Source: an uncultured Planctomycetota bacterium | GTDB taxonomy: Bacteria; Planctomycetota; SKW154; DAOVDS01 | Direction: 5' to 3' | NCBI GenBank assembly: GCA_964641955.1 | Contig: CAZXNM010000006.1 | Location: 74,556 to 138,555, forward strand | DNA: 64,000 nucleotides | Shown: one piece after another, positions 51,658-53,067 of the stretch | Position numbering within the stretch: position 1 is the first letter of the stretch | How the letters are laid out: every line of letters begins with the position of its first letter | Program-made: the position numbers and the translations under genes | Notes under the pieces: model-generated | What the model was told of the DNA's origin: nothing | Databases searched by the model: none | The model's input: the letters and a program-made list of their open reading frames with translations, nothing else

Positions 51658-53067
51658 ATGGCGAAGCTTGTTATACAGTCGGGTACTTCGGCGGGAACTG
51701 AATTCCATCTTCACGAAGGGAAGGTGATTCTCGGGCGCGACCTTTCCGCCGAGGTGAGAATCTCGGACGACGAGGCATCCCGCGAGCACGCGGAGATACT
51801 GAAGGAAGGTGATAACTGGGTGCTGAAAGATCTCGGTTCCCGCAACGGGACGAAGGTCAACGGAACGAAGATAGAGGGCACATACACGCTCAAGGCCAAA
51901 GACGTCGTGCGTATCGGCAAGACCGAGCTTCAGTACATGGACGGCGGCGAGGAAGAGGTCCCGCCGAAGAAGGCGGCGAAGAAAAAGGCGCCGGTGGACC
52001 CGAAAAGAGCGGCCGCGCAGACCGCCGTCCACGTGCCACCTCCGCCCGGCGCGGGCGAGAAGATAACCGAGGAGGACCTCAAGACAATCCAGAAGCTGCG
52101 CGAGGCCCGCGAGGCGATACTGAGCGAGATTCGCAAGGTAATCATCGGCCAGGAGGACGTCGTCGAACAGCTTGTTGTCGCGCTCTTCTCCCGCGGGCAC
52201 TGCCTGGTAGTCGGCGTGCCGGGACTGGCCAAGACCCTCATGGTGCGCACTATTTCGAGAGTGCTTGACCTCGAGTTCAAGCGCGTGCAGTTCACGCCCG
52301 ACCTCATGCCCTCCGACATCACGGGAACCGACATCCTCCAGGAAGACTCGACCACGCACGAGCGCTCGTTCAAGTTCATAAAAGGCCCGATTTTCACAAA
52401 CATGCTTCTCGCCGACGAGATTAACCGAACGCCGCCCAAGACACAGGCGGCGCTCTTGGAGGCGATGCAGGAGTACCGCGTCACGGCAGGCGGTGTCACC
52501 TATCAACTCCCGCTGCCGTTTTTCGTGCTCGCCACGCAGAACCCCATCGAGCAGGAAGGCACTTATCCTCTGCCGGAGGCGCAGCTCGACAGGTTCATGT
52601 TCATGGTGCTTATCGGCTATCCCCGGCGGGCCGAGGAGATACAGATAGTCAAGGCCACGACCTACGACTTCGAGCCGGACCTCAAGCCGGTCCTGTCCGC
52701 CGTGGACATCATGAATCTCCAGCATATCGTCAGAAGAGTGCCGATATCCGAGCACGTCGTGACCTACGCTACCGACCTGGCCCGCATGACGCGGCCCAAG
52801 GAGGAGACTTCTCCAGAGTTTATCAGGGACTGGGTATCATGGGGCGCGGGGCCGCGAGCGGCGCAGTATCTCGTAATCGGCGCCAAGGCGAGGGCAGTGA
52901 TTAACGGGCGCTACAACGTCTCGGTGAGCGACATCAAGGCAATGGCTCACCCGGTCCTGCGTCACAGGGTCCTCACGAACTTCAACGCCGACTCCGAAGG
53001 CATCGACTCCGATGACATCATTGACAAGCTGCTCGAGACTGTGCCGGAGCCGCAGTACGAAGAGTAG
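51658..53067 (+). CDS. FHA-domain / MoxR-family AAA+ ATPase fusion
   Basis: The N-terminal ~100 aa FHA domain ('KVILGRDLSAEVRISDDEASREHAEILKEGDNWVLKDLGSRNGTKVNG') is joined through a Lys/Ala-rich linker to the MoxR core: Walker A 'VGVPGLAKT', MoxR Walker B/sensor 'LLADEINRTPPKTQAALLEAMQE', 'ATQNPIEQEGTYPLPEAQLDRF'. GGGAG RBS. Confidence 0.8.
   Translation: MAKLVIQSGTSAGTEFHLHEGKVILGRDLSAEVRISDDEASREHAEILKEGDNWVLKDLGSRNGTKVNGTKIEGTYTLKAKDVVRIGKTELQYMDGGEEEVPPKKAAKKKAPVDPKRAAAQTAVHVPPPPGAGEKITEEDLKTIQKLREAREAILSEIRKVIIGQEDVVEQLVVALFSRGHCLVVGVPGLAKTLMVRTISRVLDLEFKRVQFTPDLMPSDITGTDILQEDSTTHERSFKFIKGPIFTNMLLADEINRTPPKTQAALLEAMQEYRVTAGGVTYQLPLPFFVLATQNPIEQEGTYPLPEAQLDRFMFMVLIGYPRRAEEIQIVKATTYDFEPDLKPVLSAVDIMNLQHIVRRVPISEHVVTYATDLARMTRPKEETSPEFIRDWVSWGAGPRAAQYLVIGAKARAVINGRYNVSVSDIKAMAHPVLRHRVLTNFNADSEGIDSDDIIDKLLETVPEPQYEE

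Follow-up and report, generated by a model that had tools for sequence, protein, structure and literature searches.

An FHA domain fused to a MoxR ATPase in a Bat-related gene cluster of an uncultured Planctomycetota bacterium

What would a MoxR ATPase gain from a domain of the kind that reads phosphorylated threonine? The question is raised by a stretch of 64,000 nucleotides from an uncultured Planctomycetota bacterium (GenBank assembly GCA_964641955.1, contig CAZXNM010000006.1, positions 74,556 to 138,555), here called the window, in which one gene encodes an FHA domain and a MoxR ATPase in the same frame. MoxR ATPases act as chaperone-like remodellers with VWA or DUF58 partners, and few operon types spread as widely through bacteria as the MoxR-DUF58-BatA clusters are still without a mechanism; their phenotypes lie in aerotolerance, stress resistance, and envelope integrity. 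The locus belongs to the MoxR(MRP)-DUF58-BatA kind, and what is new is its FHA input domain. The interpretation that we favor, with moderate confidence, is that a MoxR/VWA remodeller associated with the envelope is recruited or regulated in a phosphothreonine (pThr)-dependent way through the tethered FHA domain, the Hanks-type kinase being encoded elsewhere.

The FHA-MoxR fusion protein

The gene product is a single polypeptide consisting of an FHA domain, a flexible tether, and a MoxR ATPase, with the following features.

51658..53067, + strand: FHA-MoxR fusion gene, 469 amino acids (aa) plus stop, ATG start
51658..51948, + strand: FHA domain, residues 1-97, with pThr-binding residues G26, R27, S41, R42, H44, S61, and N63
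51949..52053, + strand: disordered Pro/Ala/Lys-rich tether, residues 98-132, about 35 aa
52054..53064, + strand: MoxR (MRP-type, AAA_3) ATPase module, placed by Pfam, the match to structure 2r44, and motifs
52213-52236, + strand: MoxR Walker A, GVPGLAKT, residues 186-193
52405-52428, + strand: MoxR Walker B, LLADEINR, residues 250-257
52528-52545, + strand: MoxR sensor 1
52582-52596, + strand: MoxR Arg finger
52834-53028, + strand: MoxR AAA lid
52843-52860, + strand: MoxR sensor 2

A Shine-Dalgarno sequence, GGGAG, sits 8 nucleotides 5' of the ATG. Residues 23-87 match the whole Pfam FHA profile (PF00498, positions 1-67 of 67; E=4.1e-18; 66 bits against a cutoff of 20.7) and carry the signature residues G26-R27, S41-R42-x-H44, S61-R-N63-G-T65, and N68-G69. 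An earlier, sequence-only reading of this DNA had described a complete FHA signature followed by a canonical MoxR core; the FHA motifs are present, the sole slip being the I47-L56 gap, which is 8 residues and not 6. Solved sequence relatives comprise 25 FHA chains, the best being the Chlamydia CT664 FHA domain (3gqs, 3.7e-15) and others including mycobacterial FhaA, GarA, and OdhI, and NCBIfam groups the domain with FhaB/FipA and OdhI. The Pfam match and these solved relatives identify it as a true FHA domain, and not an unrelated fold of the kind that the earlier reading had named as its possible undoing.

The MoxR core is likewise borne out. Pfam AAA_3 (PF07726) matches residues 181-315 (E=4.2e-63; 211 bits, cutoff 27), AAA_lid_2 matches residues 393-457 (E=1.4e-14; 54 bits), and the ATPase motif set is intact, with Walker A and B, sensor 1, Arg finger, and sensor 2 all located. 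The C-terminal 337 aa are 41% identical to the MoxR protein CHU_0153 of Cytophaga hutchinsonii (PDB 2r44; phmmer 9e-82), which resembles the module but has neither FHA domain nor tether. An AlphaFold2 model built from 35 homologues (mean predicted local distance difference test score [pLDDT] of 86) has two confidently predicted domains with a disordered stretch between them: residues 1-97 are all-beta with pLDDT of about 90 or higher, residues 98-132 fall below 50 and are undocked, and the AAA+ module superimposes on 2r44 (Foldseek E=1e-33; TMt 0.89; root mean square deviation 2.6). Sequence and model together identify a complete, canonical MoxR/AAA_3 ATPase, which is presumed to be hexameric and to have chaperone-like activity.

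The architecture recurs in other genomes. The earlier reading had proposed a search for how common such fusions are, and this search gave lower bounds of 70 and 15 fusion clusters at 90% and 50% identity: an FHA domain and a MoxR module share one protein in 70 of the best 120 database clusters at 90% identity (440-566 aa, except for P0013, a 783-aa tandem form) and in 15 of the best 150 representatives at 50% identity. In addition, a MoxR-motif scan of genome contigs gave at least 4 fusion loci, and a homology search with the FHA domain by itself gave at least 4 matches. Since the MoxR profile matches 10,044 representatives at E<=1e-30, FHA fusions are a small minority of MoxR proteins. Their named sources are Planctomycetota metagenome-assembled genomes (MAGs), a Verrucomicrobiales MAG (locus L005), and a Lentisphaerae MAG (locus L013), and FHA-MoxR is therefore a feature of the Planctomycetes-Verrucomicrobia-Chlamydiae (PVC) group. 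A neighbor-joining tree of the MoxR module is compatible with a single FHA gain followed by losses and also with several gains, and no recurrent recognized domain was found in the extensions of other N-terminally extended MoxR proteins. Full-text literature searches found no paper describing the fusion.

A side branch of the family consists of tandem MoxR-MoxR and FHA-MoxR-MoxR relatives with two full AAA_3 modules per chain (P0003, P0006-P0008, P0011, and P0012, 695-748 aa; P0013, 783 aa; P0129, 916 aa), which would form a pseudo-dodecameric or trimer-of-dimers ring. The literature searched holds no description of these forms either.

The surrounding cluster and its counterparts

The fusion gene lies within a run of genes on the same strand.

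50046..51533, + strand: long DUF4159 protein, 495 aa; Pfam DUF4159 E=2.7e-70, in 2 stretches
51574..51603, + strand: GC-rich hairpin of 13-14 bp, then only UUU, in the 124-bp spacer between the DUF4159 and FHA-MoxR genes
53080..53982, + strand: DUF58 protein, 300 aa; Pfam DUF58 1.9e-53, VWA_2 2e-7
53985..56216, + strand: BatA-type membrane protein, 743 aa; Pfam BatA 4.8e-15, VWA_2 4.7e-10; TIGR02226 1.8e-20
56221..58452, + strand: GATase1-like membrane protein, 743 aa; Pfam GATase1_like 4.7e-8; syntenic in relatives
58470..59729, + strand: exported protein, 419 aa; no Pfam or NCBIfam match; conserved cluster member
59736..62990, + strand: membrane protein, 1084 aa; 3 N-terminal transmembrane (TM) segments; long coiled/charged C-terminus; conserved cluster member
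62987..63925, + strand: signal-anchored protein, 312 aa; start overlaps the preceding stop

Downstream of FHA-MoxR, genes are separated by 2-17 bp or overlap by 4 bp. The DUF58 and VWA genes that the earlier reading had placed there were recovered with Pfam, as DUF58 at 53080-53982 and BatA plus VWA_2 at 53985-56216. The DUF58 protein starts 13 bp past the FHA-MoxR stop, has no TM segment, carries a DxSxS motif resembling a metal ion-dependent adhesion site (DCSRSM), and is presumed to be the cytoplasmic VWA-type partner of MoxR. Profile matches and TM scans give the BatA-type protein an N-terminal double-TM domain, a VWA domain, a ThuA/GATase1-like region, and a C-terminal TM segment, and give the GATase1-like protein, which has a DNSRSM motif, an N-terminal TM pair and a C-terminal TM segment. 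The upstream DUF4159 protein has an N-terminal signal peptide or TM segment and two DUF4159-like halves. The 419-aa protein has a 65% orthologue in L081 and an open reading frame (ORF) of about 370-400 aa at the same position in L086, L087, and the P0044 contig, and the L081 orthologue of the 1084-aa protein has a weak DUF4175 match. The gene for the 312-aa protein probably closes the cluster as far as the window shows it; the protein's 35% tblastn match in L083 has a T2SSG match, which hints at a pseudopilin-like component in the MoxR cluster. Elsewhere in the window, at 23834-26702 on the minus strand, lie two pseudopilin genes with N-terminal methylation motifs and a gene for protein F of a type II secretion system.

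Conservation in relatives corrects one point of the earlier reading, which had placed the fusion at the head of its operon. Of 9 distinct related fusion loci, 7 (L081/82, L083, L085, L087, L088, the P0044 contig, and L023) have a long DUF4159 gene directly 5' of FHA-MoxR, the two genes being 9-68 bp apart, and DUF58 then follows MoxR in most loci. The order DUF4159, FHA-MoxR, DUF58, BatA, GATase1-like, and proteins of about 390 and 1085 aa recurs across divergent fusion clades, either in full or as far as contig ends allow (L081/82, L085, L086, L087, L088, and the P0044 contig, with L086 lacking upstream sequence), and is circularly permuted in L083. The 124-bp hairpin-bearing spacer is peculiar to this genome. 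RNA folding of 51534-51660 gave -43 kcal/mol (z=-3.4), a terminator scan made no call, Rfam gave no match, and the hairpin is absent from the aligned spacers of three relatives (L081, L085, and L023). It could be a weak terminator or an RNA-stability element; it resembles a recent insertion and may partially uncouple DUF4159 and FHA-MoxR transcription in this genome only.

The same cluster occurs with a plain MoxR of about 340 aa in Acidobacteriota, Gemmatimonadota, Riflebacteria, Latescibacterota, Verrucomicrobiota, and other Planctomycetota, and the FHA domain is therefore a lineage-specific N-terminal addition to a pre-existing, widespread machine. Pirellulales-type plain-MoxR loci have a divergent upstream gene of 790-825 aa (L046, 804-3176; L065, 6998-9475; L069, 7450-9909), whose product has a DUF4159-like C-terminal region and an N-terminus that resembles prenyltransferase/squalene-cyclase repeats. 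Within the window, the ORFs at 31186-33528 and 35791-38304 have weak SQHop_cyclase matches, and the intervening ORF at 33539-35917 has no Pfam match.

The label "Bat-like" used in the earlier reading holds in part. Bat operons of Bacteroides, spirochaetes, and Riemerella comprise MoxR, DUF58, the VWA proteins BatA and BatB, BatC, BatD, and BatE, with MoxR at or near the operon front (PMC11834572). The window shares with them an MRP-type MoxR followed by DUF58 and then a BatA-domain VWA membrane protein, in that order. However, its MoxR carries an N-terminal FHA domain, as in the PVC relatives, and BatD, TPR, and SH3 domains, the last two typical of BatC/BatE, were not detected with Pfam or NCBIfam in the five downstream proteins or the DUF4159 protein. 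In place of BatC, BatD, and BatE, the PVC cluster has a GATase1-like membrane protein, two large proteins without a known family, and the long DUF4159 protein. Because no BatD, BatC, or BatE was detected, the cluster is Bat-related and not a Bat operon in the strict sense.

Another counterpart is the RL3499-RL3502 operon of Rhizobium leguminosarum, described as broadly conserved, which encodes a MoxR-like ATPase, DUF58, and two membrane proteins. We take these to match the four-gene core of the PVC cluster gene by gene (MoxR, DUF58, a double-TM/BatA-type protein, and a second large membrane protein). The rhizobial MoxR differs in lacking an FHA domain, and beyond the core the PVC cluster contains DUF4159 and three more genes. 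What this type of cluster does is nevertheless best hinted at by RL3499-RL3502, which points to envelope integrity. Envelope phenotypes of mutants in RL3499-type operons come from Vanderlinde 2011, to the extent that this work is summarized in PMC5700661 and cited in PMC5118466, and mutants of related operons also show stress and aerotolerance phenotypes (PMC11834572).

Precedents for a link to phosphorylation come from other groups. The PFNA operon of Bifidobacterium contains the Ser/Thr kinase gene pkb2, fn3, the MoxR gene aaa-atp, duf58, tgm, prpC, hyp, and fha (PMC8430577), and the actinobacterial Esr pathway includes MoxR, vWA, a kinase/phosphatase, and an FHA protein (PMC13622651). These systems group MoxR and DUF58/vWA functionally with Ser/Thr-kinase signalling and an FHA reader, an association that the locus in the window would share. 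In PFNA and Esr, however, FHA, kinase, and phosphatase are separate genes of the same operon and the membrane partners differ from those of the PVC cluster, whereas in the window the FHA domain is joined to MoxR with no kinase or phosphatase linked. By analogy, the fusion looks like a "Rosetta stone" version of the PFNA/Esr association, and as a conserved architecture it independently supports a link between MoxR/vWA and Ser/Thr-kinase signalling. ArnA (FHA) and ArnB (vWA) are another precedent with separate genes (PMC4858521).

FHA domains are also known to control ATP-driven machines. In the enhancer-binding proteins of Myxococcus that act with sigma54, an FHA domain lies N-terminal to the AAA+ module. 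Fha binds pThr-TssL and thereby activates type VI secretion, with Fha/TagH working alongside PpkA (PMC3953482). The likeness to Fha/TagH-PpkA would be that an FHA domain turns Thr phosphorylation into assembly or activation of such a machine; the differences are that the AAA+ module here is of the MoxR clade and not NtrC or ClpV, that the partner set is another, and that the PVC fusion is known from sequence alone.

Phosphothreonine reading and its alternatives

Whether the FHA domain is likely to bind pThr can be judged from its contact residues, which we counted across 70 fusion proteins. G26 is conserved in all 70, H44 in 69, S41 in 65, R27 in 64, R42 in 60 (with Lys in 8 more), and N63 in 59, and these positions align with the equivalent residues of FhaA (3po8). 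The pThr-contact residues are thus under purifying selection, and their conservation argues that pThr binding is retained in most members.

How such binding might be used can be sketched from the related systems. The MoxR hexamer would work with the cytoplasmic DUF58/VWA partner on membrane-anchored BatA-type proteins, as has been proposed for Bat/RL3499-type operons, and six tethered FHA domains would provide an input or recruitment module on the N-terminal face of the ring. PVC bacteria are generally rich in Hanks kinases, and a protein phosphorylated on Thr by such a kinase, encoded elsewhere in the genome, would be bound by the FHA domains. Binding would serve either to recruit the ATPase to a client or adaptor that carries the phosphate or to control its assembly and activity, much as an FHA domain stands in place of the receiver domain in the FHA-sigma54 activators and as Fha with pThr-TssL switches on type VI secretion. 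The fusion may in this way put the MoxR/vWA complex under kinase control or target it to a phosphorylated client. Bat-type VWA proteins are envelope-facing, and BatA-type VWA domains face the periplasm (BB0173, PMC5700661).

A more specific version, which we advance only tentatively, is that of a pThr-directed AAA+ remodeller, in which a client or adaptor in envelope biogenesis would be marked with pThr by a Hanks kinase, and the six FHA domains on the ring entry face would read the mark and deliver the marked protein for ATP-driven remodelling or insertion. If true, the mechanism would parallel, with pThr, the phospho-arginine/ClpC N-domain system, and Bat/RL3499-type MoxR-DUF58-BatA clusters would have their first defined input signal. 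The value of the locus is limited in that only part of the PVC group, mostly uncultured organisms, has the fusion, and that the sequence names no kinase or ligand.

Several observations weigh against pThr-dependent control of the cluster. About 10-15% of fusion proteins are substituted at R27 or N63, and some may therefore not bind pThr. The statement of the earlier reading that no Ser/Thr kinase or PP2C lies in the window was confirmed: Pfam searches of all 48 ORFs of at least 100 aa found no Pkinase, PP2C, or second FHA domain, and scanning all six frames turned up no FHA besides this one and no motif of the Hanks catalytic loop. Nor is a kinase or phosphatase linked in 10 of 11 distinct fusion loci; a Hanks-type kinase lies within 10 kb in 1 of these 11, as in 1 of 76 plain-MoxR loci. 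The single case, which speaks for a kinase link, is L013 (Lentisphaerae MAG JABMPJ010000003, 9980-19587), which has no DUF58 and in which the kinase and an FHA-GAF gene lie within 3-7 kb of the fusion: a Ser/Thr kinase with WD40 repeats (1228 aa, 14264-17950, minus strand) 3 kb from FHA-MoxR, and a divergently transcribed FHA-GAF-histidine kinase at 17971-19587. The fusion genes of L013 and L084 stand alone, not adjoining DUF58/BatA genes, so that FHA-MoxR is not strictly tied to that cluster. Finally, the partner proteins offer no obvious ligand. When Thr residues were compared between 8 fusion and 49 plain loci, DUF58 had no fusion-specific conserved Thr and no convincing FHA-locus-specific Thr emerged in the BatA, GATase1-like, or 1084-aa proteins; only T546 of BatA is fusion-specific, in a region likely outside the cytoplasm, and T913 and T934 of the 1084-aa protein are fusion-specific in a sample of only 5 versus 8 that is confounded by phylogeny.

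The DUF4159 protein supplied one candidate ligand, which was rejected. The motif KPQR[RI]KGGE.FPPLPLP[AV]TP.RRTE[KR]KR.P (residues 28-58; window 50127-50219) is near-invariant, directly follows the signal-peptide-like N-terminus, and is the best-conserved part of proteins that are otherwise just 42-52% identical. It also occurs in L081, L083, L085, L087, L088, L023, and L089-L168, with at least 305 metagenomic relatives confirmed. In the first sample, this Thr-containing motif co-occurred with FHA-MoxR. In 80 loci recovered by a metagenome scan with the motif, however, it was followed by plain MoxR in 21 and by FHA-MoxR in 2-3, with 45 in other contexts and 11 at contig ends. Since the motif mostly occurs without FHA-MoxR, it is not coupled to the FHA domain, which again weighs against pThr-dependent control. 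The motif probably lies after a cleavable signal peptide; the +6 charge after the DUF4159 hydrophobic segment is odd for an exported protein and leaves the topology ambiguous.

Separate FHA genes near plain MoxR are also rare, occurring within 10 kb in 2 of 76 loci. In L071 (Novipirellula herctigrandis), a stand-alone FHA protein of 151 aa (8088-8543, minus strand) is encoded 1.3 kb 5' of a plain MoxR-DUF58-BatA cluster, with a radical-SAM gene between them; this arrangement may represent the fusion in split form or may be coincidental.

Could the FHA fold instead serve as a phospho-independent interaction or oligomerization scaffold that tethers MoxR to a cluster component without kinase input, in the manner of the FHA-like domains of EssC/EccC or YscD? 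We consider this improbable. The Pfam family Yop-YscD_cpl also matches the domain (E=3.4e-18), a minority of homologues lack R27 or N63, and the scarcity of linked kinases and phosphatases, in the window and in most fusion loci, would be expected of such a scaffold. But degenerate phospho-independent FHA-like domains have lost the pThr-contact positions, whereas five canonical positions are kept in about 85-100% of the 70 fusion proteins, and the nearest solved relatives, FhaA, GarA, and OdhI, are bona fide pThr binders.

These relatives also suggest a different use of pThr binding, since GarA and OdhI work by self-binding of their own pThr. By this account, phosphorylated T122 in the tether would be bound by the FHA domain of the same or a neighboring subunit, altering hexamer assembly or ATPase activity instead of recruiting an external client. 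T122 is the sole hydroxyl residue of the 35-aa tether (context KRAAAQTAVHV), 9 of the 11 nearest-clade proteins have an aligned Thr in the shared context KRAxAQT[AV][VI] although the remaining linker varies, and the FHA domain is nearest to the GarA/OdhI/FhaA type, with 2kfu ("Rv1827 pThr 22") among the matches. Beyond the nearest clade, however, the motif does not align: tethers range from 12 to 139 aa among homologues and are Pro/Ala-rich, and many fusion proteins have linkers of 12-25 aa without Thr or a comparable motif. Most FHA domains prefer a hydrophobic or acidic residue at +3 from the Thr, where these proteins have H, S, or G, and the AlphaFold2 model, which does not represent phosphorylation, leaves residues 98-132 disordered and undocked. 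A GarA-like switch is thus possible in the nearest clade and offers no general rationale for the fusion, and for this protein we think it doubtful.

Far less probable is membership in the MoxR-vWA-beta-propeller "ternary" conflict systems described by Kaur, Burroughs, Iyer, and Aravind, with the FHA domain acting in signalling or as an effector. The Pfam family bpMoxR (PF20030) does match (E=1e-10), and FHA is listed among the domains of such systems (PMC7159879). However, bpMoxR scores 41 bits against 211 for AAA_3, and in the same study FHA is fused to vWA effector proteins and not to MoxR. Pfam detected no beta-propeller, effector, or toxin domain in the cluster, and the neighbors are a housekeeping-type DUF58/BatA/GATase1-like set conserved across phyla. 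The locus thus falls outside the ternary systems of Kaur et al. 2020, and this alternative is disfavored.

That a sequencing or assembly frameshift falsely joined a small FHA gene to a MoxR gene, the other weakness that the earlier reading had foreseen, is practically excluded, since the frame is uninterrupted in this genome and at least 70 independent sequence clusters, derived from different assemblies and pipelines, show the architecture again. Gene calls do disagree, in that P0088 (NCBI, 355 aa) omits the FHA part included in P0023 (JGI, 478 aa), apparently from the same contig (the longest contig is given as 40,239 bp in both records), but P0088 simply starts further inside this one unbroken ORF, at an internal Met; annotation-based counts of the FHA-MoxR architecture are therefore underestimates.

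A possible defense gene in the window

Apart from the MoxR cluster, the window contains a 1037-aa ORF at 44793-47906 on the minus strand, in a patch of low GC content (47-51% versus about 58%). Its product has HD-CE (E=2e-51) and HATPase_c_3/HSP90-like ATPase domains, with weak similarity to the BbrUII/HgiDII restriction enzymes and MzaB and weak PADLOC matches, and it is probably a horizontally acquired defense-type gene.

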